Shown piece by piece: positions 43,865-55,539 of a stretch of 64,000 nucleotides of DNA. The stretch is from Gammaproteobacteria bacterium. GTDB taxonomy: Bacteria > Pseudomonadota > Gammaproteobacteria > Eutrophobiales > Eutrophobiaceae. How positions within the stretch are numbered: the stretch's first letter is position 1; each line of letters starts with the position of its first letter. Both the position numbers and the translations under genes were made by a program. The stretch spans positions 2,368,001 to 2,432,000 of the forward strand of contig CBDCDS010000003.1 of assembly GCA_965215365.1 (NCBI GenBank). Direction: 5' to 3'. Under the pieces are notes generated by a model, which saw only the letters and a list, made by a program, of their open reading frames with translations, had not been told where the DNA came from and did not search any database.

Positions 43865-45913
43865 TTACCTGCCGGTATTACCGTCAAGCCGACCTTCATG
43901 CCCGCGCAAAAACACTTCCACCGCCGCTAACTCGCTGGTATGTCCCATCTTTGGCAGGCTGTTCAGGAAAGTTCTGCCGTAGGGCTTGGCAGTCAGCCTG
44001 GGGTCGCCGATCATCAGGATGCCGTAGTCGTTGCGGTCACGCAGCAGGCGGCCGATACCTTGTTTCAGGGTCAGCACTGCTTCGGGGACCTGGTATTCCA
44101 AGAACGGATTACGGCCCTGCTCCCGCATGCGGGTCAGCCGGGCGTTCAGGACCGGGTCGCCGGGGGACGCAAACGGCAATTTGTCGATGATCACGCAGGA
44201 CAGCGCCTGGCCGCGCACATCCACGCCTTCCCAGAAACTGCTGGCGCCCAGCAACACCGCATGGGGGGTAGTCCTGAAGGTTTCCAACAGTTCGGTGCGC
44301 GGCGCCTCTCCCTGCACTAGGGTGGGGTAATCCAATGCCGCGCTGACCTGCTCGGCAGCTTCCCGTAGCGCCCGGTGGCTGGTGAACAGGAAAAACGCCC
44401 GCCCCCCGGTCAGGCGTAGTAGCGGCAGCGCTGTTTCCACCAGTCTTGCGGTGAACTGCTGCGATTTGGGCTCGGGCAGGCCCCGGGGCAGGTACAACAG
44501 AGACTGAGCCCGGAAATCGAACGGGCTCTCCCAGCCGCGTGCCGGCGCCTGCTGCAGACCCAGTCGCGCGGAAAAATAGTCAAACCGTTGTGCCACGCTC
44601 AGGGTGGCCGAGGTAAACACGTTCACGCACTTCAGCTCCTCCATGCGCGCGCGGAACAGGTCGGCCACATCCAACGGGGTCTGGTGCAGGTAAAAATGCC
44701 TGCCGCGCAGCTCCAGCCAGTGGATACAGTCGGGCGGCGCGCCCGGCGCGGACAAAGCCTCAGACTGCGACAACAACGCCCGCTGTTCCGCAGCCGCCAG
44801 CGTGCCTGACGCAGGCATGTCCGCTCCTTTTGAGGGTGCGGGGTCAGCATTCTTCACAAACCGCCCCAACAAGGCCAGCGCCGCGCCGGCCCGCTTGCAG
44901 CAGTTATCCAGCGACTTGCCTCTGGCGGCAAAGTCCGATAACGCCTGGCGCACCTTGCCCAGCTGCGCCACCAGCCCCGCCAGCACCGCAGCAACCTCTG
45001 CCCGCTCTTTCACCTCGGCCCAGACCAGCCGGCTGTCCTCCCTGGGAAAGGCCAGACGCAGGTCACGCGCGGCCTTGTCCAGGCCATCCAGCAGCGCTGG
45101 AAAATCCGGCAGGTCTGCCGCTTCCTCATAGTACGCAGTGCGCGCGTCAGACACCAGCTCCAGCAGTTGACGGCTGCTCAAGGTCTCACTGAAAAACTGT
45201 GAGGCCAGTTCCGGCAACTGGTGCGCCTCATCGAAGATGAGCACCTCGACAGACGGCAGCAACTCGCCGTAGCCGGCCTCTTTCAGCACCATGTCAGCCA
45301 GAAACAGATGGTGGTTGACCACGGCCAGATCCGCGTCCACAGCCCGACGGCGGGCGCGGAACACGAAACAGTCGTCGTAGAAATCACACTCCTGGTTCAG
45401 GCAGTTATCCGCGCTGGAAACACAGGCCGTGCGCACCGCTGAGTCTTCCGGGATGTGGGTCAACTCGGCCAGATCACCGCTGTCTGTGCGTTGTGACCAG
45501 GCGCGCATATCAGCCAGATAGCCGCGCGCCTGCCGGCCCAGCCGGTGCCCATCCAGCTCTGCCAGTTGTAACCGGTGCCAGCACAGGTAATTCGCCCGCC
45601 CCTTGAGCAACGCCACCTTGAGTGCCCGCCCCACGGCCTTGCGCACCAGCGGCAGGTCGCGGCTGAACAACTGGTCCTGCAAGTGCTTGGTGCCGGTGGA
45701 GATGATCACCTTATGACCGGACTGCAACGCCGGCACCAGATAGGCAAACGTCTTGCCGGTGCCGGTGCCGGCCTCGCAAATCAGCGTTTCCCCGGCGTCA
45801 ATCGCGGCGCGAATAGCCTCAGCCATTTCCACCTGCTGCGGCCTGACGGAGTAGTCATCGATTAACTCCGCAAGAATCCCTTGCGCGCCCAAGATGTCGG
45901 CTGGTGTTTGCAT
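43865..45913 (-). CDS. yoaA: ATP-dependent DNA helicase, DinG/YoaA family
   Basis: EAGTGTGKT, KGRANYLC plus Fe-S cysteines, FDEAH, SFWEGVDV, QGIGRL. Confidence 0.93.
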   Translation of the reverse strand: MQTPADILGAQGILAELIDDYSVRPQQVEMAEAIRAAIDAGETLICEAGTGTGKTFAYLVPALQSGHKVIISTGTKHLQDQLFSRDLPLVRKAVGRALKVALLKGRANYLCWHRLQLAELDGHRLGRQARGYLADMRAWSQRTDSGDLAELTHIPEDSAVRTACVSSADNCLNQECDFYDDCFVFRARRRAVDADLAVVNHHLFLADMVLKEAGYGELLPSVEVLIFDEAHQLPELASQFFSETLSSRQLLELVSDARTAYYEEAADLPDFPALLDGLDKAARDLRLAFPREDSRLVWAEVKERAEVAAVLAGLVAQLGKVRQALSDFAARGKSLDNCCKRAGAALALLGRFVKNADPAPSKGADMPASGTLAAAEQRALLSQSEALSAPGAPPDCIHWLELRGRHFYLHQTPLDVADLFRARMEELKCVNVFTSATLSVAQRFDYFSARLGLQQAPARGWESPFDFRAQSLLYLPRGLPEPKSQQFTARLVETALPLLRLTGGRAFFLFTSHRALREAAEQVSAALDYPTLVQGEAPRTELLETFRTTPHAVLLGASSFWEGVDVRGQALSCVIIDKLPFASPGDPVLNARLTRMREQGRNPFLEYQVPEAVLTLKQGIGRLLRDRNDYGILMIGDPRLTAKPYGRTFLNSLPKMGHTSELAAVEVFLRGHEGRLDGNTGR

Positions 45914-45976
45914 GTGCTGGTTATAAAATCCTTTTGCAGAGTTGGTGACAATTTGCGTGTTTTTGACTTACTGCGT

Positions 45977-48900
45977 TCAGGCCGGTCCGGGTGGGGTGCA
46001 ATCTACCGCGCATACGGAAATTTTTTTTCGTTCCTCATCACTATCAAGCAACCGGCTCAATCGTGCTTCGAGTTCTCTCGGTGTTGCGGGTTTGGGGCCG
46101 CCTTCGGGAGGTGGCGTGGTCTTTTCAGGCCCGAACCAGAATACCAGATATATGCCGTAGCCGTATGCCGTTGGGTCTATGGTGTAGCACTCGATCAGTT
46201 GCTTTTTGAGCCCATGCCAGAGGTCTTTGCTGTCATTGCATTTGATCTCGATGGGGAGGTTATAGCTACCCAATGAAACCCGGATATCCGCCCGTCCTTC
46301 ATTGGCATAACGCCCTTCAGGCTGCGTGTCGACTTGCATGTTTTCGAGCAGCGGCCTGAGGTCGGACAGGAATCGATCGCGACAGGTTTCTTCATGTTGG
46401 CGAGTGACAGGATATTCTCTCCAGTATTGTCGAAAATCATTTGTGTTGCCGTGTTTTATTCGCTCGGCCAATTCCCGAATGCACTCGTGTGTTATGCCAG
46501 CCAGATCGGCAACATTGGCCGGAGGGCCATTATTCAGGGCAGAACGCACCTGCTCCAGGTCGGCATATCTGAACATGGCCTCACGTTTGGCCGTGCGTTG
46601 GCTATGCAGCGTCCGTCTTAACATGGGATGCCATTTTGACAATTGGCCTGATTGGAGCAAAGATTGAATTGCGTCAGTACCTTCGTCCCCCAAGAAAGTG
46701 GCCAGTCGGGAAACCAGTTGCATAACTACCTCTGAGGCATCATCCGAGGTCGAAACAGGCGTATAATAAGGACCCAGCAGCGCCACCATTAGCGACACCC
46801 CCGGTAAAGACAATTTGTCGACAGGCTGCCATTGCTCGCTACGACAGGACAGGAATCCGCTTAAATAACTTATGCATGCTTCTTTCCCTGAGACAAATTC
46901 GGTCAGCCGTTGGGCGAATTGTTCCGGCGCAAGAATGATGCCGGCAGCCATCCATAGTGTGCGCTGTGCCGCGTCCATACTTTTCAAAGAGAGTTTTTTC
47001 TCGGTTAATTGTTTAAGGCTATGATGATCTGCATACTGCAGCGCGGCCGCTAACAGGTCATAAAGCGGAGCAAGTTGTACTGATGTGCTTCGTGCCCGAA
47101 AACTCTCAAGTAGCGGTAGCGCAACAGCGGCGGCCAGCTGTCGGTGATTGTCATCAAAAGCAAGAGCGTAACTGCCGGCAAGATGCGTCTTGCCTGCTCG
47201 CAACGCCATGGTGCCATACATGGTGTAAACTCTGGCTACGAGCTGTGGTCGCTGCAGCAGCAGGGTTTCATACCATTCGCTTTTCTCTGTTGCATCGACG
47301 AAATAGAAGGCCAGCGCTTTTTCGATTTTATCTTCGCTCAGTTGCAGCAGTGTTTGCATCCCGGACCTTGCCAATTCATCCATTCCTGCTCGATAAGGGT
47401 GAGAAGAAACCAGATATTTATTATCTGCGTGCGCTTGTAGTATTTCTTTGACATCCGGGATGTCTTCCCGCTGGATGAAGCGTTGCAGGCCGCTTAACGT
47501 GCTTTGAACCAAGCCAATATCGTTATTAAAAAAGTGTGTCAGGCGTGCGCGCGGATGATCACCTCTCGACTCGATAAAATAACCATAATAGGCTGAGGCT
47601 AATTTGCTGAATAGCGCGGGTTCTGCCGTACCTGCTTCAATCTCTCTTAAGTTGTTCTGCAAATATTGCAGGAACGCCTGTTTGGCCTGTTCTCTCTCAT
47701 TTCTGAGGCGTTTGCGCGCACGGTTGGACTGGCCGTACTCGGGGCTGATTTCCCTTACCCGGTTTACCTCCCAATACTGTTTGAGGCAACGGTCCCTTGC
47801 CACAGCTTCTTCTACCCGTTCTAGGGACATGCCAGCACTTCCGTTTTCTGAAAACAGAGTTGAGAGGCTCTGTGAAAAAAAATATTTACGGGTGTTTTCA
47901 TCATCACAAGTCACAGCCTGAGCAAGACACCAACGGCCATAGTCTTCCGGCAAATCCGAATTAAACAACTGCGCGCTGATTTTAGAGACATAACAGTGTA
48001 AGTCATCTGCCTGCCCGCATTTGTCCAGCAGGGAAGCAACCAGATCTTTTTGAATTTCCGGGTGTTGCTCCAACCATTTTCTAATGCGCGTGGCATCCGG
48101 GCGCCAAAGTAAAATCGAGTCGTACTCATCAAGCCCCAGCCCAAGCCAGCCCAGCAGTCTTGTCGTTGCCACATCGGCGCCGTATTTTTCAACGCCTCTT
48201 GCCAGCAGGTTGCCGACCATGGCCTGATAAGTATCTTCATCAGAATCGCGCCGCGCCGGCACCGGCATCGTTACCAGGGCATCGAGAAGCCGGGGTATCT
48301 GACTATCAGTGGACAGTCTGGTTAACTCATCGCCCCAGAAGGAGTGATATGTGCCAATATAATCCAGCTTTTTTGGGGTTCGATAATAATTGAATATCTC
48401 GTCCGGGGTAATCCGGTGCGGATATTGAGAAAGCAGTAATTGCCCCAAGAGCTCATCATCCGGGTCAGGGATAATATCCCGGTGGATATCCGCCAGGATT
48501 TCCTGCACAGTCTGTTTATCATTGAAACGGAGCAACACTGCTAGCGCCCGTTTCCTGTTTTTCGACCAGCAATCGCGATTTTTAAGCAGACTGGTCAATG
48601 CGCCTGCTAATCCCGGCAGCGCCACGCCGTGAATCATGGACGCCAGCACATAAGCAAGCAGGTATTGATGCGTATCACTGTGGTCACGGGATTTAAGAAT
48701 ACTCAGATATTCCTGCTCCATATCAGTCTGACAAAACGCGCCGAAAGACTGTGTGTTCCGATAATCAACGCCAATATTCCCTGCTTGTTCGGCATAGTTG
48801 CTCAACTCGTGCAATAGTTTAAGACGGTCTCCTTTATTGAACAGACTGACATCGCCGTACAAAACCACTCCGAGCGGGTCGCGTTGCATCAGTTTATCCC

Positions 48901-49585
48901 GCTCAGTATGGCAAAGCGCAGCAATCCAGGCATAAATACCGCGCAATTCGGAAACTGTTCCACCGTCGGCTCCCGTTATGAGCGCTAACACCCGCCCGAC
49001 TGGCAACGCCTCCTGAACGATTTTATTCGATAAATAATAAGCGCCCAGGTATTCCGCAAAAATACGGTGGCTGTATTCAGTGTGTCCATCATGCGTGACG
49101 AACAATCGTGTTCCTGCTACCCGTTGCAGTAAAGCCGGACTGCCATCTGCCAGGTCACCTATAAAGGGATAATCATCATTTGCATTGGACCTTATTAAAG
49201 CAAAGCCTGATTTGCGCGCCAGCAGCATCACTGCGCACAGCATACCGGAGGCCTGCATCAGTTCTTCAGCGGGAGGAGTTTGATTACGGTGAGCAATGTT
49301 ATGAGTTGGATTTTTTTCCAGTAACAATTTTTCGCAGGCCAACCGGAAAACATCTGCTTTCCTTTCAGGCCACTGGCCTCCTTCACCCACGGCTACCACC
49401 AGCATTTCCAGGATTTGCGGGTTTTTGATTAACTCACTCAATCCTCGGTGTTGTGCCCCTTGCAGAAATGAAGATGCGTTAGGCTCTGTTTTATGGTGAT
49501 TCCTGATCAGGACTTGCAGTAAGTCTTCCTCTGTGAGCTCATCTAAGAACAATTCCTTAGTCGGCGCATAATAATTCATAGTCAT
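45977..49585 (-). CDS. Large STAND/NACHT-like helical protein lacking a visible Walker A/B, with C-terminal PD-(D/E)xK nuclease
   Basis: ~1200 aa; NPQILEML and YSHRIFAEYLGA resemble post-NTPase NACHT motifs; C-terminal GRADIRV...PIEIK...YGIYLVFWFG. ATG 49585 overlaps the upstream TGA. Confidence 0.7.
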   Translation of the reverse strand: MTMNYYAPTKELFLDELTEEDLLQVLIRNHHKTEPNASSFLQGAQHRGLSELIKNPQILEMLVVAVGEGGQWPERKADVFRLACEKLLLEKNPTHNIAHRNQTPPAEELMQASGMLCAVMLLARKSGFALIRSNANDDYPFIGDLADGSPALLQRVAGTRLFVTHDGHTEYSHRIFAEYLGAYYLSNKIVQEALPVGRVLALITGADGGTVSELRGIYAWIAALCHTERDKLMQRDPLGVVLYGDVSLFNKGDRLKLLHELSNYAEQAGNIGVDYRNTQSFGAFCQTDMEQEYLSILKSRDHSDTHQYLLAYVLASMIHGVALPGLAGALTSLLKNRDCWSKNRKRALAVLLRFNDKQTVQEILADIHRDIIPDPDDELLGQLLLSQYPHRITPDEIFNYYRTPKKLDYIGTYHSFWGDELTRLSTDSQIPRLLDALVTMPVPARRDSDEDTYQAMVGNLLARGVEKYGADVATTRLLGWLGLGLDEYDSILLWRPDATRIRKWLEQHPEIQKDLVASLLDKCGQADDLHCYVSKISAQLFNSDLPEDYGRWCLAQAVTCDDENTRKYFFSQSLSTLFSENGSAGMSLERVEEAVARDRCLKQYWEVNRVREISPEYGQSNRARKRLRNEREQAKQAFLQYLQNNLREIEAGTAEPALFSKLASAYYGYFIESRGDHPRARLTHFFNNDIGLVQSTLSGLQRFIQREDIPDVKEILQAHADNKYLVSSHPYRAGMDELARSGMQTLLQLSEDKIEKALAFYFVDATEKSEWYETLLLQRPQLVARVYTMYGTMALRAGKTHLAGSYALAFDDNHRQLAAAVALPLLESFRARSTSVQLAPLYDLLAAALQYADHHSLKQLTEKKLSLKSMDAAQRTLWMAAGIILAPEQFAQRLTEFVSGKEACISYLSGFLSCRSEQWQPVDKLSLPGVSLMVALLGPYYTPVSTSDDASEVVMQLVSRLATFLGDEGTDAIQSLLQSGQLSKWHPMLRRTLHSQRTAKREAMFRYADLEQVRSALNNGPPANVADLAGITHECIRELAERIKHGNTNDFRQYWREYPVTRQHEETCRDRFLSDLRPLLENMQVDTQPEGRYANEGRADIRVSLGSYNLPIEIKCNDSKDLWHGLKKQLIECYTIDPTAYGYGIYLVFWFGPEKTTPPPEGGPKPATPRELEARLSRLLDSDEERKKISVCAVDCTPPGPA

Positions 49586-50886
49586 ACGAACCACTCTTTC
49601 GGGTCGGTCAGCAAAAAAAAGTCCAGCGGCACACCTTGGGGCCCCACTAAAACTCTATTGTGTGGCTTGAACTGCCGGGTAAAACTGTCCAGCCCGCGAG
49701 CGGGTACTGTGCTGCTTGAGGACTTTACCTCTATGGCGACAATTCGATTCCCCCTGGCCAGGATAAAATCCACTTCGTCATGTCCATGCCGCCAGTAGTA
49801 GAGCTTGCAATCCGGGATGGTGCAGTTATAAAGATGCGCGCCCACGGCGCTTTCTACCAATCGTCCCCAGTAGCTGCGGTCTTGTTGTGCCTCTGCAAAT
49901 GAATAGCCGGATGCTGCACTCATCAACGCCGTATTGAGCACATTGAGTTTAGGGCTGGAGGCACGCCGACGCTGTGGTTGATTGGCATATTTTTCCAGCC
50001 CTGCCAGCAATCCTGCCTGGGTCAGCAAATCCAGGTAATGCGCCAGTGTCGTGGTATTGCCCGCGCCCTGGAGTTGTCCCAGCATCTTGTTGTAGGACAA
50101 CTCCTGCCCTGAATAATGACACCCCAGCTCAAACAGGTTTTTCAACAATATTTTCTTGTCAACCCGGATCATCATGAAAATGTCTTTCCTGATATTCGGT
50201 TCGATTAACGAATCCCGCACATAGCTCGCCCAACGCTGTTCATCGCGAATGTACTGAATGCTGCCGGGATAGCCGCCATAATAAATGTACTGCAGCAGGT
50301 CGATATCAAAGGCGCCATTCATTTCCTCAAATGACCAATGCGTCATGCGTAGCAGTTCAAACCGGCCGGCCAGACTTTCCGTCAGGCCTTGTTGCACCAG
50401 CAGGGGGGCAGAGCCCAGTAAGACGACATGCATGGACCTTTCCAGGGCACGGTCGGCATCCCACAGACCTTTTACCGTCTCCGACCAGTTCTTGATCTTC
50501 TGTATCTCATCCAGTACCAGAACGAAATTTCTTTGCGGGATAGCTTCTGCTTGATTGAGAGGGTCGGGGGGCAGGATGAATTCATCAGCAGCAACACGCG
50601 CCTTTTCCCATTGCGTTACCAGCCAGGTCACATCGTGTTCTGTTGTTCCTGAAGTGATAGCTTTATCGACATCATGCAGAGACGGATAAAGGGTCGGTAG
50701 AGCCGGTTCGCCGATATTATGGTAATGGTAGCAATCAGGCGGATAGTGTTCAGCCAAGGCTCGTTTGACCAGGGTTGTTTTACCAATCTGGCGCGGGCCG
50801 GCAACGATAATTATCCGGCTGACCGGTTCTCGAAGCCGGTCTATTAAGGTTTTTACATGTGTCCGTTGATACGCCATAAACGCCAT
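49582..50886 (-). CDS. AAA+ ATPase, AAA_14 + DUF4143 type
   Basis: GPRQIGKTT, VLDEIQ, ESLAGR, GGYP, EVDFI...AIEVKS. Confidence 0.9.
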   Translation of the reverse strand: MAFMAYQRTHVKTLIDRLREPVSRIIIVAGPRQIGKTTLVKRALAEHYPPDCYHYHNIGEPALPTLYPSLHDVDKAITSGTTEHDVTWLVTQWEKARVAADEFILPPDPLNQAEAIPQRNFVLVLDEIQKIKNWSETVKGLWDADRALERSMHVVLLGSAPLLVQQGLTESLAGRFELLRMTHWSFEEMNGAFDIDLLQYIYYGGYPGSIQYIRDEQRWASYVRDSLIEPNIRKDIFMMIRVDKKILLKNLFELGCHYSGQELSYNKMLGQLQGAGNTTTLAHYLDLLTQAGLLAGLEKYANQPQRRRASSPKLNVLNTALMSAASGYSFAEAQQDRSYWGRLVESAVGAHLYNCTIPDCKLYYWRHGHDEVDFILARGNRIVAIEVKSSSSTVPARGLDSFTRQFKPHNRVLVGPQGVPLDFFLLTDPKEWFV

Positions 50887-50923
50887 TTTACATCATTGAG
50901 TAAAATTACTCAATGATGTAAAA
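50886..50923. promoter_or_regulatory. Perfect 18-bp inverted repeat (operator and/or efp terminator)
   Basis: ttttacatcattgagtaa-aa-ttactcaatgatgtaaaa, touching the ATPase ATG. Confidence 0.7.
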
Positions 50924-50947
50924 AAAACGTATTGAGCTGGCGTTATT

Positions 50948-51517
50948 TCAACTTTTTACCCGACTCACGTACTCCCCCGTGCGAGTATCCACCTTGATCT
51001 TTTCTCCCTGCTCCACGAACAGCGGCACCTTGACGGTGGCGCCGGTTTCCAGGGTGGCGGGTTTGGCGCCGCCGGAGGCGGTGTCGCCGCGTACGCCGGG
51101 GTCGGTTTCGGTGATGGTCAGCTCAACGAAGTTAGGCGCTTGTACGGATAGCGGGGCGCCGTCCCACAGGGTTATTGCGCATAGCTCCTCGCCCGTTAGC
51201 CACTGGCCGGCAGCGCCTAGCGCGGCGCTTCCTGCCTCGACCTGTTCATAGGTGTTCAGATCCATGAAATACCAGAGCTCGCCGTCGTTGTAGAGGTACT
51301 GTAACTCCGCATCAACCACATCCGCAGCGGGGACGCTATCGCCGGACTTGTAGGTTTTGTCCAGCACCCGGCCGCTCTTCAGATTGCGGATCCTGATACG
51401 CGTGAACGCCTGCCCCTTGCCCGGCTTGACAAACTCGCTGTCAAGTATGATGCAAGGGTCGCCGTCGATAAGTAACTTCAGGCCCGGCCTGAATTCACTG
51501 GTGCTGTGGTTAACCAT
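50948..51517 (-). CDS. efp: Elongation factor P
   Basis: Start placed at ATG 51517; [28 protein letters not shown]. Confidence 0.98.
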
Positions 51518-51772
51518 TGTGTTCCGTGATAAAAAGAGAAACTTAAAAACTGTCGGCGAGCGCATGGTCACGCAGGCGCAATAGTCAGTTACGACCGCTC
51601 CGTGCTGTTATATAAGGTCACCTCTATTAATCAGATGCGCCCTTATGCTCCCGGCGACGCCCGACTCACTGATGGGACTAACCATACCACGATATAAATA
51701 AAATGCCAGCCGGACGTCATACGAAAACAAGGCATGTGGTAAGATCATGCGCCTGAATATAGAAAGCAAGTA

Positions 51773-54421
51773 ATGCAACACTCAAAAGACAATTTTGCTC
51801 ATGGTAGCGCTTGGTTCCGAGCTGATTTTCATCTGCATACTCGGGCGGATAAAGAATTTAGCTACGCTGGAGAGGATAATTATTACTATTCAAATTACAT
51901 CCAGGCTTTGAAAGGAGCCGAAATTGGCATTGGAGTTATAGCCAACCATAACAAATTTGACTTTGAAGAGTTTAAGGCACTGAAAAAAACCGCTCTGAAA
52001 CAGGGAATTTTTCTCCTACCCGGTGTGGAATTGTCGGTTAACGACGGCAGTAATGGCATCCATACTCTGGTCGTGTTTGCCGATGAATGGATAGAAAATA
52101 ACCACGACTATATCAACCAGTATCTCAATGTCGCCTTTGCAGGGAAAACACCCAACGAATACGAGCATGAAAACGGTCGCAGTTCATTGGCATTGCTCGA
52201 TACCATTAAGAAGCTCAATGGTTATCAGAAAGATTTTTTTCTAATTTTTGCTCACGTTGAGGACAGAAGTGGCCTATGGCATGAGTTGGAAGGCGGCAGG
52301 CTTCAGGAACTGGCTGACAATGAACTCTTCTGCAATCATACGCTGGCTTTTCAGAAGGTGCGAACCCATGATGTCTCAGACCGTAAATGCCGGCTCAAAG
52401 TACAGGACTGGTTGAAAACAGCTTATCCGGCCGAGGTAGAGGGTTCTGATCCTAAGTCTGTTGCGGAGATTGGAAGGGGTGAAAAGTGCTATCTCAAAAC
52501 CGGCGCGTTTACCTTTGAAGCGATCAAGTATGCGCTTTTGGATCACGAAAATCGTCTGGTTTCGGAGCCACCTGAATACAAACATTCACATATCTCGAGC
52601 ATATTCTTTGAAGGCGGCATACTGAACGAAGAGATCATCAGGTTCTCTCCTGAACTTAATACATTGGTTGGCATTCGCGGCAGTGGTAAATCTTCCGTCT
52701 TAGAGGCGATTCGGTACGCGCTTGATATCCCATTTGGAGAGAAAGCGCTGGATACAGATTACAAAGCCGATCTTATTGAACATGTATTGGGCAGCGGAGG
52801 CAAAATAACACTTAATGCAGTCGATCGATGGGGACAGCAATACGAAATACGGCGCATCAGCCGGGAGCGGCCGGATGTTTATGTTGACGGCAAGCTCCAA
52901 CCCGGCATTTCCATTCGGCAGACTGTTGTACATAAACCTGTTTATTTTGGACAGAAAGACCTCTCTGCTACCGGAGAGGGCTTCGAAAGCGATCTCGTAG
53001 AAAAACTTGTGAGCGAAAAATTGACGGGGATACGTTCTGACATCGCCGAACAACGTCAAAAAGTGATCGATCTCGTTAACAGGTTGAAGAAACTTTCAAA
53101 CACAGAAGAAAAGAAAAGGGAGTACGAAGGCAAAAAACAGGATGCTGAATTCAGGCTGGATTTCTATAAAAGACATGGGGTTGAGGAAAAGCTCCAAAAG
53201 CAGGTTGATTTTGACGCTGACTCCAGAAAATGCAGGCAGCTCACTTCCTTTATCAAAGGTTATATTGAGGATTTGCAAGCGTTTATAAATCAATATGAAG
53301 ATGACTTGAAAAATCAGCAGAGCTATACCTCCAGACAGAACATTGCATTCTTTGACGAGTTTTTTTCTCACTACAAAAAACTGCTAATTTCTTTTGACAA
53401 CATAAAAACGGAATTGACGGTAAGCAGGCAAGTATTGAACGGACTCGATAAAAAAGCGCAAAAATTTGACTCATTCAAGGAAGATCTAAAGGAAGAATTT
53501 GCCCGGGTAGAAAGACAACTTGCCGACCACCTGAGAGAAGGGGGAGCGCAGGCCATTCACACTGGCGAGTTCCACCTGCTCAGAAAAACTGTAGAAGATG
53601 CCACAAAAATACTCAGGGAACTGGCAAAAGAACAGATAATTCGGTCTGAACTGGAAGGTAAACTGATAACGGAACTCACCGAATTTAATAATCTCCTGCA
53701 CAAGGAATTTACCGCGATAAAAAGTGAACTGGAAAAAATCAATCAGAACCATTCGACCATCCGGATTGAAGCCGAATTTAAGGGAGACAAAGATGCTTTT
53801 CTCTCATTTATGCAGGATATATTTCGAGGAAGCCGGCTGCGGGAAGCGACCTTAAAAAATCTTGTTGGTAGCTTCGCTGATTTCGGCGCCATGAAAAAAG
53901 AATGGGCAAGAGTTAAAAGCAACTTAGGGACTTCTCTGCAGATATTTGAGCAATTTTTTGAAGATAACTTGGAGACTCTGCTAACCTGGCAAGTGCCCAA
54001 TCGCTTTGTCATTAGCTACCGTGACAAGGAACTTAAACGACATTCTTTGGGGCAACGAGCCTCAGCATTGATCCTCTTTATTCTCAGCCAGGAAGAGCAT
54101 GATATTTTTATCATAGATCAGCCGGAAGATGACCTGGATAACCAGACTATTTACGAAGATGTCATTAAATCCATCCGGTATTTGAAGCCGGGAACACAGT
54201 TTATTTTTGCCACCCACAACGCCAACTTTCCAGTGTTGGGTGATGCAGAGCAGGTTATCGCCTGCTCTTATTCCGATGATAAACTCGATAAAATTGAAGG
54301 AAGCATCGACCAGCCTGAGCTCCAGCAGAAAATTATCGACATCATGGAAGGCGGCAAGGAAGCATTCAGACAACGCAAACGCAGATATGAAACATGGAAA
54401 CCACAGAACTCCTCGAAATAA
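51773..54421 (+). CDS. PHP-domain + SMC/ABC-type ATPase (Ppl/TrlF-like)
   Basis: DFHLHT, NHN, GVEL, AHVE, GSD PHP motifs; GIRGSGKS; long coiled coil; SLGQR, IIDQPEDDLDN, ATHN. Low GC. Confidence 0.85.
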   Translation: MQHSKDNFAHGSAWFRADFHLHTRADKEFSYAGEDNYYYSNYIQALKGAEIGIGVIANHNKFDFEEFKALKKTALKQGIFLLPGVELSVNDGSNGIHTLVVFADEWIENNHDYINQYLNVAFAGKTPNEYEHENGRSSLALLDTIKKLNGYQKDFFLIFAHVEDRSGLWHELEGGRLQELADNELFCNHTLAFQKVRTHDVSDRKCRLKVQDWLKTAYPAEVEGSDPKSVAEIGRGEKCYLKTGAFTFEAIKYALLDHENRLVSEPPEYKHSHISSIFFEGGILNEEIIRFSPELNTLVGIRGSGKSSVLEAIRYALDIPFGEKALDTDYKADLIEHVLGSGGKITLNAVDRWGQQYEIRRISRERPDVYVDGKLQPGISIRQTVVHKPVYFGQKDLSATGEGFESDLVEKLVSEKLTGIRSDIAEQRQKVIDLVNRLKKLSNTEEKKREYEGKKQDAEFRLDFYKRHGVEEKLQKQVDFDADSRKCRQLTSFIKGYIEDLQAFINQYEDDLKNQQSYTSRQNIAFFDEFFSHYKKLLISFDNIKTELTVSRQVLNGLDKKAQKFDSFKEDLKEEFARVERQLADHLREGGAQAIHTGEFHLLRKTVEDATKILRELAKEQIIRSELEGKLITELTEFNNLLHKEFTAIKSELEKINQNHSTIRIEAEFKGDKDAFLSFMQDIFRGSRLREATLKNLVGSFADFGAMKKEWARVKSNLGTSLQIFEQFFEDNLETLLTWQVPNRFVISYRDKELKRHSLGQRASALILFILSQEEHDIFIIDQPEDDLDNQTIYEDVIKSIRYLKPGTQFIFATHNANFPVLGDAEQVIACSYSDDKLDKIEGSIDQPELQQKIIDIMEGGKEAFRQRKRRYETWKPQNSSK

Positions 54422-55539
54422 TCAGCGGTGGCGAAGATAGCCGGCACCAGTTCAAAGCAAATGTGACCAATGAAACAACATTGGCTCAGGAAATGGTTGC
54501 ATTCAGTAACTCTGGCGGGGGTTCTGTTTTCATTGGAGTCAGCGATGACGGAACGTTAGCCGGTCTCGATGGAAACGATATTGCGCGTCTCAATCAACTT
54601 GTTTCTAATGCTGCCTCTCAGCATGTCAAGCCGGCGATCAATCCTCGGACAGAAAACAAGATAATTGAAAACAATCATGTAATACGGGTAGTCGTCCCTG
54701 ATGGTATTCGTAAGCCCTACATGGATATAAATGGAGTAATCTGGGTAAAGTCGGGATCAGATAAACGTAAGGCCACTTCCCATGAAGAAATTCAGCGTAT
54801 TTTTCAAAGTGCAGGCTTGATTTATGGAGACAAAATTCCCGTGTCGGGGACGAGCTTGACAGATATTGATTTAGATTATTTCAAAAAGTTCTTTGACAAG
54901 CAGTTTGGTACACCGTTGGAACAGCAGGAAGTATCACTGCCACTTCTCCTGCAGAACATGAGTCTGATGAAGGATGGGAGACTGAATATCACTGGCGTGT
55001 TACTGTTTGCCAGAGAACCGGGTTTCAAACTGCCTGTCTTTATTATAAAAGCTATTGCCTTTCCCGGTGACAAAATCCACGCCACCAACTACCGCGACAG
55101 TCGTGATATAACCGGGAAGCTAGCGGATGTTTTCCAGCAAGCAAGGAGCTTTGTTCTTGGAAACATCAGGCACAAGCAGGGAAGGCAGGGTGTAAACGCG
55201 CCCGGACTTCCAGAGATTCCCGCGGTTGTGTTGGAAGAGCTCATTGCCAATGCTCTTATTCATCGTGATTACTTCGTGTCTGCACCTGTGCGAGTTTTTG
55301 TGTTTTCCGATCGGGTGGAAATCATAAGTCCCGGTCATCTGCCCAATAATCTCACAGTTGAGAACATTAAACTGGGAAACTCAAATATTCGTAATCCTAC
55401 TTTAGCGTCCTTCGCGACAAAATTGCTCCCCTATCGCGGACTAGGCAGCGGTATTATCCGCGCACTGCAAGCATACCCACATATTGAGTTTGACAATGAC
55501 CGCGATGGGAATCTTTTTAAGGCCACCATCAGACGGTGA
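54394..55539 (+). CDS. Schlafen/AlbA_2-domain protein with HATPase-like (RecG-C type) domain
   Basis: GEDSRHQFK, EMVAFSNSGGG.VFIGVSDDG; ELIANALIHRDY, EIISPG, GLGSGI. Confidence 0.85.
   Translation: METTELLEIISGGEDSRHQFKANVTNETTLAQEMVAFSNSGGGSVFIGVSDDGTLAGLDGNDIARLNQLVSNAASQHVKPAINPRTENKIIENNHVIRVVVPDGIRKPYMDINGVIWVKSGSDKRKATSHEEIQRIFQSAGLIYGDKIPVSGTSLTDIDLDYFKKFFDKQFGTPLEQQEVSLPLLLQNMSLMKDGRLNITGVLLFAREPGFKLPVFIIKAIAFPGDKIHATNYRDSRDITGKLADVFQQARSFVLGNIRHKQGRQGVNAPGLPEIPAVVLEELIANALIHRDYFVSAPVRVFVFSDRVEIISPGHLPNNLTVENIKLGNSNIRNPTLASFATKLLPYRGLGSGIIRALQAYPHIEFDNDRDGNLFKATIRR

Follow-up and report, generated by a model that had tools for sequence, protein, structure and literature searches.

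A coupled AAA_14/DUF4143 ATPase and Erebus-like NACHT gene pair in Gammaproteobacteria, with an in-frame deletion of the NACHT core in one lineage

Introduction

Erebus, Hypnos, and bNACHT64 have been grouped as Avs10, and the available text of two papers reports that proteins of this type sense the phage major capsid protein, which triggers them, and that they kill through an effector domain (PMC12803255, PMC13581612). PDC-S01, a second class of defense gene, encodes an ATPase fused to a PD-(D/E)xK-type domain, and in the available text of its source most PDCs still await validation (PMC12988326). Here we describe a locus in which relatives of the two stand side by side. It lies in a stretch of 64,000 nucleotides (nt) from a Gammaproteobacteria bacterium (assembly GCA_965215365.1, contig CBDCDS010000003.1, positions 2,368,001 to 2,432,000), referred to here as the window, and consists of a PDC-S01-type AAA_14/DUF4143 ATPase gene followed by an Erebus (EruA)/Avs10-like NACHT gene without its nucleotide-binding core. 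An earlier note, made from the sequence alone, had read the pair either as a two-gene defense system with the nucleoside triphosphatase (NTPase) supplied in trans or as the result of a recent 5' truncation by insertion of the ATPase gene. Our comparisons point to a conserved two-gene unit from which the window lineage has lost the NACHT core by an internal deletion.

Results

The gene pair

Both genes are on the minus strand. The upstream gene (49582..50886) encodes a 434-amino-acid (aa) AAA_14/DUF4143 ATPase of the PDC-S01 type, with a PD-(D/E)xK-like motif at its C terminus and every motif intact. The downstream gene (45977..49585, stop codon included) encodes the 1202-aa Erebus/Avs10-like protein that lacks the nucleotide-binding core. 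As listed, the long frame spans 45977..49594 and, read from an upstream GTG, has 1205 aa; homology places the start at the ATG at 49585 instead, for a length of 1202 aa. The boundary reads ...TGG TTC GTA TGA CT..., with the ATG (49585-49583) overlapping the TGA stop of the ATPase gene (49584-49582), and this ATGA overlap (49582..49585) is consistent with translational coupling. The guanine-plus-cytosine (GC) content of the pair is 0.49-0.52, against 0.60-0.65 in the surrounding genome.

The 1202-codon frame has zero internal stops. In the 1205-aa reading, the motifs LDELTEED, NPQILEML, and HRIFAEYL begin at residues 17, 58, and 176. No G/AxxxxGK[S/T] motif was found anywhere in the NACHT-like protein, and its sole hhhhD[DE] match, ALAFDD at residue 810, lies within the helical region. 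The putative nuclease motif D...E-I-K (46241-46288, minus strand) is read as ADIRV...EIK at residues 1102/1116. The description in the earlier note is thus borne out by open reading frame and motif reading: a stop-free frame of ~1200 aa without Walker A/B, with the three helical motifs and an AD...EIK end, an ATG at 49585 overlapping the ATPase stop, and an intact upstream ATPase that ends in a D...EVK-type domain.

The 402-nt deletion

DNA alignment of the window with the intact locus of a congener (L002) shows one clean gap of 402 nt (134 codons), in frame. At the junction (window 49561|49560), the A of ancestral codon 9 is joined to the CT of ancestral codon 143 to form ACT (Thr), within codon 9 (49559..49561, minus strand). 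The lost segment corresponds to residues 10-143 of the NACHT protein, with Walker A, Walker B, and the sensor arginines inside it; across 47 family sequences, the residues conserved at ≥90% in this segment are G45, G47, K48, D86, D89, E90, R118, R122, D125, and W126. The nearest relative, P0004 (1337 aa; 80% identical over P0004 residues 144-1337), starts with MSLNYYAPRR and carries GQPGSGKT (residue 42) and LFIDGLDE (residue 83), followed by ...PKELFLAELTEED, whereas the window protein starts with MTMNYYAPT-KELFLDELTEED, so that the family N terminus MxxNYYAP runs straight into KELFL. As its first 9 residues (MTMNYYAPT) are the native N terminus of the family, the protein cannot be described as starting where the NTPase ends. 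The earlier note had it begin just before the NACHT-like helical motifs; the motifs are where it placed them, but the native N terminus precedes them and the loss is internal. By family alignment, the part of the NACHT module that follows the nucleotide-binding domain is kept (48416..49558, minus strand), comprising the last strand KELFL and a helical and winged-helix-like region with NPQILEML and HRIFAEYL.

The deletion is illegitimate, internal, and in frame and is not a 5' truncation; neither a direct repeat spaced 402 nt nor microhomology was found at the breakpoints, as checked in the intact L002. Truncation of the NACHT gene by insertion of the ATPase gene, the second proposal of the earlier note, has in its favor only that the P-loop is missing and that the two genes lie so tightly together. 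The start, the 9 native codons, and the conserved ATGA overlap are all present, congeners and distant genomes alike have the ATPase gene in the same position in front of an intact, full-length NACHT gene, and the alignment with L002 places the missing DNA inside the NACHT gene. The truncation is refuted by this alignment, and we give it next to no credence. The gene order of L002 (parC-efp-ATPase-NACHT-helicase-aminoacyl-tRNA synthetase) is the same as that of the window, and its flanking proteins are 88-96% identical to those of the window (parC, 96%; efp, 93%; helicase, 89%; aminoacyl-tRNA synthetase, 93%). The NACHT-like gene is single-copy in the window genome, in which no separate NACHT-core fragment matching P0004 was found.

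The junction is also present in assemblies of other runs. A 5103-nt contig from run X1 (study P1) covers 45848-50950 and carries it, with 21 substitutions and 0 gaps relative to the window, so that X1 represents a different strain. In runs X2, X3, and X5 (study P2), which may be the source of the window, a 24-kb contig is identical to the window, junction included. The window genome consists of 3 contigs with 97.6% completeness, and contigs rather than reads stand behind the comparison, which leaves some room for an assembly or consensus artifact, but a gap-free junction in assemblies of four runs from two studies, one of them of a different strain, makes an artifact very improbable. The check rests on assembled contigs, beside which rare intact alleles may exist.

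A search of 5.8 billion proteins gave 279 relatives of the long protein, and we consider the best 120 of these 279. At least 1300 aa are present in 113 of the 120, and the same deletion is found only in the window's own entry. The P-loop region is kept in 147 of the 150 best representatives, and the other 3, without Walker A, look like fragments or frameshifted calls. A second clean, independent P-loop-less allele was found neither among the best 120 relatives nor among the 150 representatives. As candidates for one, P0262, P0341, and P0251 were rejected because they look like fragments or frameshifted calls, and L025 was rejected because it is short only where its contig ends. P0073 (1206 aa) begins at the equivalent of residue 145, without the native N terminus; its relatives L051, L052, L055, L059, and L060 are full length in all cases. 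The contig end of L025 (L025:5040-5162) and the start of P0073 both lie no more than ~10 residues from where the NACHT core gives way to the helical part, the place of the window's right breakpoint, a coincidence that may reflect chance or strain-level structural variation.

Conservation of the pair

At the order level, every locus that holds a full or near-full NACHT gene (7 of 7: L003, which equals L002, and L004-L009; 6 from the same genus and 1, L007, from another genus of the same family) has the ATPase gene directly upstream of it. Among class-level loci, taken at an E value of ≤1e-100, it is directly upstream in 7 of the 9 that could be assessed (L023, L024, and L027-L031), L025 being cut by a contig end. 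The two exceptions are the strongest EruA matches, L021 (1318 bits) and L022 (1055 bits), where no ATPase gene was found within the 1.5-kb flank. Metagenome loci L059 and L060 also have it directly upstream of the NACHT gene, and none was found in the short upstream DNA present at L051, L052, and L055. Because the ATPase gene was not seen at these five loci, the partnership is clade-specific and not family-wide.

A stop/start overlap (ATGA, GTGA, or TGATG) joins the two genes in 8 of 10 loci (the window, L002, L004, L005, L008, L009, L024, and L028); at L006 the genes are 3 nt apart, and at L023 they do not overlap. An apparent internal TGA in L006 was considered as a gene disruption and dismissed, as it is the natural stop of an intact gene. 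The overlap persists at loci with NACHT proteins of only 33-37% identity, and divergence runs in parallel in the two genes (from 87 to 52% identity to the window for the ATPase and from 98 to 34% identity to P0004 for the NACHT protein). A protein search for fusion forms gave 103 matches (102 parsed, P0125-P0226), among which 13 clusters of ~1790-1834 aa (P0131-P0143) join a complete ATPase to a complete NACHT protein, with two Walker A matches in 11 of the 13. Two of these 13 are labeled by their source as proteins from Acidobacteria metagenome-assembled genomes.

By these comparisons, the pair is a conserved, translationally coupled two-gene unit, and we infer that, where the pair is intact, its products (an ATPase-nuclease and a NACHT sensor-nuclease) work together in a single complex. 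Two independent single-gene systems (PDC-S01 and an Erebus-like NACHT) sharing a defense hotspot would fit the listing of PDC-S01 by PADLOC, and in the available text of PMC12988326, as a single-gene candidate, and would fit the five loci named above at which the ATPase gene was not seen. This explanation would leave unaccounted for an overlap conserved despite 33-37% NACHT identity, the parallel divergence of the two genes, and the 13 whole-gene fusion clusters, and we regard it as improbable.

The earlier note had proposed examining homologs for an extra N-terminal NACHT and independent genomes for the same pair, and had counted full-length close homologs, together with a pair unique to this assembly, against a split system. 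Of the relatives listed, very few are without the NACHT core, and the close homologs are full-length NACHTs; the pair, as counted above, is not unique to this assembly. Of a two-gene system with its NTPase in trans, what stands is the genuine, conserved, coupled pair. As the design of the system it does not stand, since, next to the same ATPase gene, the NACHT partners of all intact relatives examined carry a Walker A/B of their own.

The literature searched held no description of the ATPase-NACHT pairing, and the primary Erebus paper and its supplements, which lay outside that search, could describe neighboring genes. Literature on DUF4143 and phage contained nothing experimental on the pair, and the available text of the Avs paper has no mention of DUF4143, AAA_14, operon, or two-gene (PMC13581612).

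Identity of the two proteins

The long protein matches NCBIfam NF058535 ("NACHT domain-containing antiphage protein EruA") with an E value of 5.7e-241 and 803.3 bits over profile positions 131-1317 of 1318, and profile positions 1-130 are unmatched. Both the window protein and its nearest intact homolog P0004 (921.2 bits) score below the EruA equivalog cutoff of 1000 bits, so that by the NCBI threshold they represent a related clade and not equivalogs. We take EruA, from the names, to be Erebus, whose primary description is reportedly that of van den Berg et al. 2024. On the profile match, the long protein is an Erebus (EruA)/Avs10-like NACHT protein. Pfam and PADLOC scans gave no family for it (the protein search carried a precomputed label, PF28130, that is absent from the Pfam set scanned), and a sequence search of solved structures, with the window protein alone or with a 47-sequence profile, returned nothing below an E value of 0.06. 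Of the STAND/NACHT layout, a P-loop domain followed by helical and winged-helix regions, the window protein keeps the helical and winged-helix regions and lacks the nucleotide-binding domain. For the first 520 residues of the congener's protein, a low-confidence model (mean predicted local distance difference test [pLDDT], 66) had its best Foldseek matches in NOD2 (E value, 4e-5), NAIP/NLRC4, NLRP3, NLRP9, and Avs4.

The C-terminal 300 residues (45980..46879, minus strand) consist of a helical lead-in and a predicted PD-(D/E)xK-type nuclease domain. Their model (mean pLDDT, 81) had no Foldseek match at an E value of ≤0.001, and VIA-align of residues ~105-300 gave middling Z scores of 6.0-7.3 to Can2, PaqCI, BamHI, BstYI, OkrAI, EcoRV, McrC, and Bse634I. 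In the 47-sequence family alignment, which includes the window protein, E1200, E1225, D1235, E1248, and K1250 (P0004 numbering) are invariant. We accept the nuclease assignment, a feature expected of EruA, because of the alignments to restriction endonuclease folds and the invariant D...E-x-K.

The upstream protein matches AAA_14 (82.2 bits; cutoff, 27) and DUF4143 (92.7 bits; cutoff, 28.1) in Pfam, and the PADLOC model PDLC04791 (PDC-S01) with an E value of 1.4e-160 over residues 4-433. Its motifs are Walker A GPRQIGKT (30), Walker B VLVLDE (122), and EVD...EVK (371/386), and G30, G35, K36, T37, D126, E127, D373, E386, and K388 are invariant in an alignment of 9 ATPase partners. The two Pfam domains, the PADLOC model, and the intact Walker A/B and PD-(D/E)xK-like motifs together place it in PDC-S01.

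NACHT-less fusions and repeated loss of the core

At the same locus in five genomes of the same genus, the ATPase gene is fused in frame to C-terminal parts of the NACHT gene. In L010 (1489-4788, minus strand; 1099 aa from the first start codon in a 1110-codon open frame), the complete ATPase is joined to NACHT residues ~700-1334, and in L014 (187-2715) it is joined to residues ~700-1048. L011 (130-2538), L012 (145-2628, minus strand), and L013 (136-2619) each join the complete ATPase to NACHT residues ~612-628 and ~735-1063, and in all three the helicase gene is next after the fusion. The ATPase tree groups the window with the intact L002 as sisters (100/100), gives L010 and L014 a clade of their own (100/100), and places L011-L013 among intact pairs. 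From these placements, the NACHT core is estimated to have been lost at this locus at least three times independently within the genus. For the NACHT-derived part, the ratio of nonsynonymous to synonymous rates (omega) between L011 and L012, which share junctions, is 0.30 (75.5 nonsynonymous versus 65.5 synonymous changes), and for the ATPase part it is 0.16; between L010 and L014, the values are 0.34 and 0.35, respectively.

Similar proteins occur in the wider search. Six clusters of ~1000-1100 aa (P0124, P0130, P0148, P0150, P0151, and P0153) join AAA_14/DUF4143 to NACHT residues ~717/766-1335 and have a single Walker A, and ~50 clusters of ~840-890 aa join AAA_14/DUF4143 to NACHT residues ~745-1121. 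The helical region of the window protein (46628..47758, minus strand) corresponds to P0004 residues 745-1121, the part that is elsewhere fused straight behind AAA_14/DUF4143 proteins.

Fate of the deletion allele

We read the locus as a long-resident, translationally coupled two-gene antiphage module. The first gene encodes a PDC-S01-type AAA_14/DUF4143 ATPase-nuclease, and the second a NACHT NTPase with a long helical sensor and a C-terminal PD-(D/E)xK nuclease, each of the two proteins having its own P-loop in relatives. In the window lineage, the deletion has taken the NACHT core and left the start, the coupling, the helical sensor, and the nuclease intact. STAND/NLR proteins are switched on by nucleotide-dependent oligomerization of the NACHT core; as this switching needs the deleted core, the window protein would no longer be a self-contained NACHT switch. 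With NACHT-driven oligomerization gone, there would be either no activation or an activation that depends on the AAA_14 ATPase. The account that we favor, with modest confidence, is that the window's allele is young and not yet decayed, has lost its function or at least become independent of the NACHT, and stands beside an intact, still constrained ATPase-nuclease gene. Between a young loss-of-function allele and a sensor still driven in trans by the ATPase, we lean slightly to the former.

This account draws on the polymorphism between the two deletion-bearing strains (the window and X1). Of the 18 codons that differ in the NACHT-like gene, 12 have changed nonsynonymously and 6 synonymously (omega, ∼0.61); with omega at its long-term value of 0.25, at least 12 nonsynonymous changes would have a probability of 0.055, and the likelihood ratio is 3.4 for neutrality, in a test that rests on 18 codons only. 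The 1305-nt ATPase gene has 0 differences between the same strains (P = 0.002 under a uniform rate). Polymorphism since the deletion thus leans to relaxed constraint on the NACHT-like gene. On the longer scale, nonsynonymous divergence (dN) to L004 is 0.228 for the window and 0.233 for L002, with no lineage-specific acceleration, and none of the four regions is accelerated either (window/L002, 0.186/0.173, 0.290/0.309, 0.254/0.282, and 0.152/0.129). These values fit a deletion that is young relative to the L002 split (synonymous divergence [dS], 0.44), or unchanged constraint.

Several observations weigh against a dead allele. The deletion does not shift the frame, which both deletion-bearing strains keep open, and all family-invariant residues outside the lost segment are kept in the window protein, the nuclease D...E-x-K included. 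The 18 changed codons are confined to the sensor region (codons 470-1050), with 10 of them inside the helical region at 46628..47758, and the first 469 codons are unchanged between the strains (P = 0.00014 if changes were uniform); this clustering looks like imported tracts or sensor diversification and not like uniform decay. By their omega values, the L010/L014 and L011/L012 fusions are under purifying selection and not dead, and the families that join AAA_14/DUF4143 to the C-terminal part of the sensor without a NACHT are widespread. The available text of the Avs paper also describes one active Avs8 homolog, KpAvs8, with degenerate Walker motifs (PMC13581612).

If the deletion allele is functional, the ATPase would supply the nucleotide-driven assembly in trans, and the P-loop-less protein would serve as sensor and nuclease only. 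The window pair would then be a split version of the natural single-chain proteins made of AAA_14/DUF4143, the C-terminal half of the sensor, and the nuclease. Such a reading accommodates the Rosetta-stone fusions that connect both proteins, the two sizes of NACHT-less cluster, the purifying selection on the congener fusions, the sparing of the ATPase gene in each of the at least three losses within the genus, and, in the window itself, the open frame, the intact nuclease motif, and the kept coupling. The architecture, however, is not that of the natural NACHT-less forms, since the window protein keeps residues 144-700, which they lack; its allele is the sole one of its kind among the best 120 relatives and the 150 representatives; and the post-deletion polymorphism leans the other way. 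We consider a functional allele possible but not probable.

A broader version, which we put forward tentatively and hold to be slightly more doubtful still, is that the AAA_14/DUF4143 ATPase, and not the NACHT, is the indispensable motor in this clade and engages the helical region of its partner (~745-1121). The NACHT core would then be dispensable, the window allele would work in trans, and the core could be lost repeatedly (at least three times in one genus) without loss of function.

Neighboring genes

The pair sits downstream of efp (50948-51571) on the minus strand. The efp frame was listed as 207 aa from a GTG, and the congener alignment begins only at residue 19, so the true start is probably an internal Met that gives 189 aa. 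Promoter and terminator scans gave no excess over the shuffled expectation (5 versus 6.4 and 8 versus 6.5, respectively). In X1, the 5.1-kb contig that holds the pair breaks at both island borders, and a 120-nt contig of low depth (6.4 versus 17) departs from the window sequence at 45918 (region 45848-45918). This pattern suggests coexisting strains with other content at the efp-helicase site.

On the plus strand, 51773-55539 holds two overlapping genes with a GC content of 0.41-0.47. The product of one is an 882-aa Ppl-like ABC/SMC-type ATPase (PADLOC Ppl, E value of 8.5e-39 in the C-terminal part; Pfam SMC_N/AAA_21), and that of the other is a 381-aa Schlafen AlbA_2 and HATPase_c_4 protein. 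The block is absent at L002, where parC abuts efp, and so represents a separate defense-type insertion between parC and efp.

Discussion

The conserved coupling, the whole-gene fusions, and the repeated, selected NACHT-less derivatives suggest that the ATPase and the NACHT protein act as one machine in a sizeable clade. PDC-S01 is reportedly among the commonest candidate defense genes in prokaryotes and is experimentally unvalidated, while in Erebus/Avs10 the role of an NLR-like capsid sensor has been validated. The window deletion may be plain erosion, but the coupling, the fusions, and the recurrent NACHT losses of the gene pair around it allow an ATPase partner of NLR-like sensors to be proposed in testable form. 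The window allele is a natural deletion mutant, and the intact pair of its congener has proteins 80-87% identical to its own, so that comparing the two bears on whether an NLR-like sensor-nuclease needs its own nucleotide switch beside a second ATPase. If the allele is dead, it would be an ordinary case of defense-gene erosion at a hotspot. If the sensor is driven in trans, the pair would be a bacterial counterpart of sensor/helper NLR pairs, with the helper drawn from a different, non-STAND ATPase family.

Compared with Erebus/EruA, the retained part of the window protein matches the profile to its end, and the intact relatives share the order of N-terminal NACHT, long helical region, and C-terminal nuclease-like domain. 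The N-terminal NACHT NTPase with Walker A/B, present in these relatives, is absent from the window protein, and the clade of the window has an obligate upstream ATPase-nuclease gene that the two top-scoring EruA loci (L021 and L022) are without. With PDC-S01, the upstream protein shares an end-to-end match to the model and the same build of ATPase and PD-(D/E)xK-type domain. PDC-S01 is, however, catalogued as a single-gene, unvalidated candidate, and here it is coupled to, and elsewhere fused with, a NACHT sensor-nuclease.

In paired plant NLRs, a sensor NLR can dispense with its own P-loop and rely on a helper NLR. By analogy, the window protein may have its nucleotide switch supplied by a partner, but that partner would be an AAA_14/DUF4143 ATPase and not an NLR. 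KpAvs8, in the available text of its source, is a phage sensor of the STAND family whose function apparently needs no ATPase activity; its domain is present with degenerate motifs, whereas the core of the window protein is physically deleted (PMC13581612). The fusion proteins differ from the window pair in being single polypeptides, and their NACHT-less classes are without residues 144 to ~700, which the window protein keeps. They are nonetheless built of the same two modules, and two NACHT-less classes of them lack the NACHT P-loop, as the window allele does.

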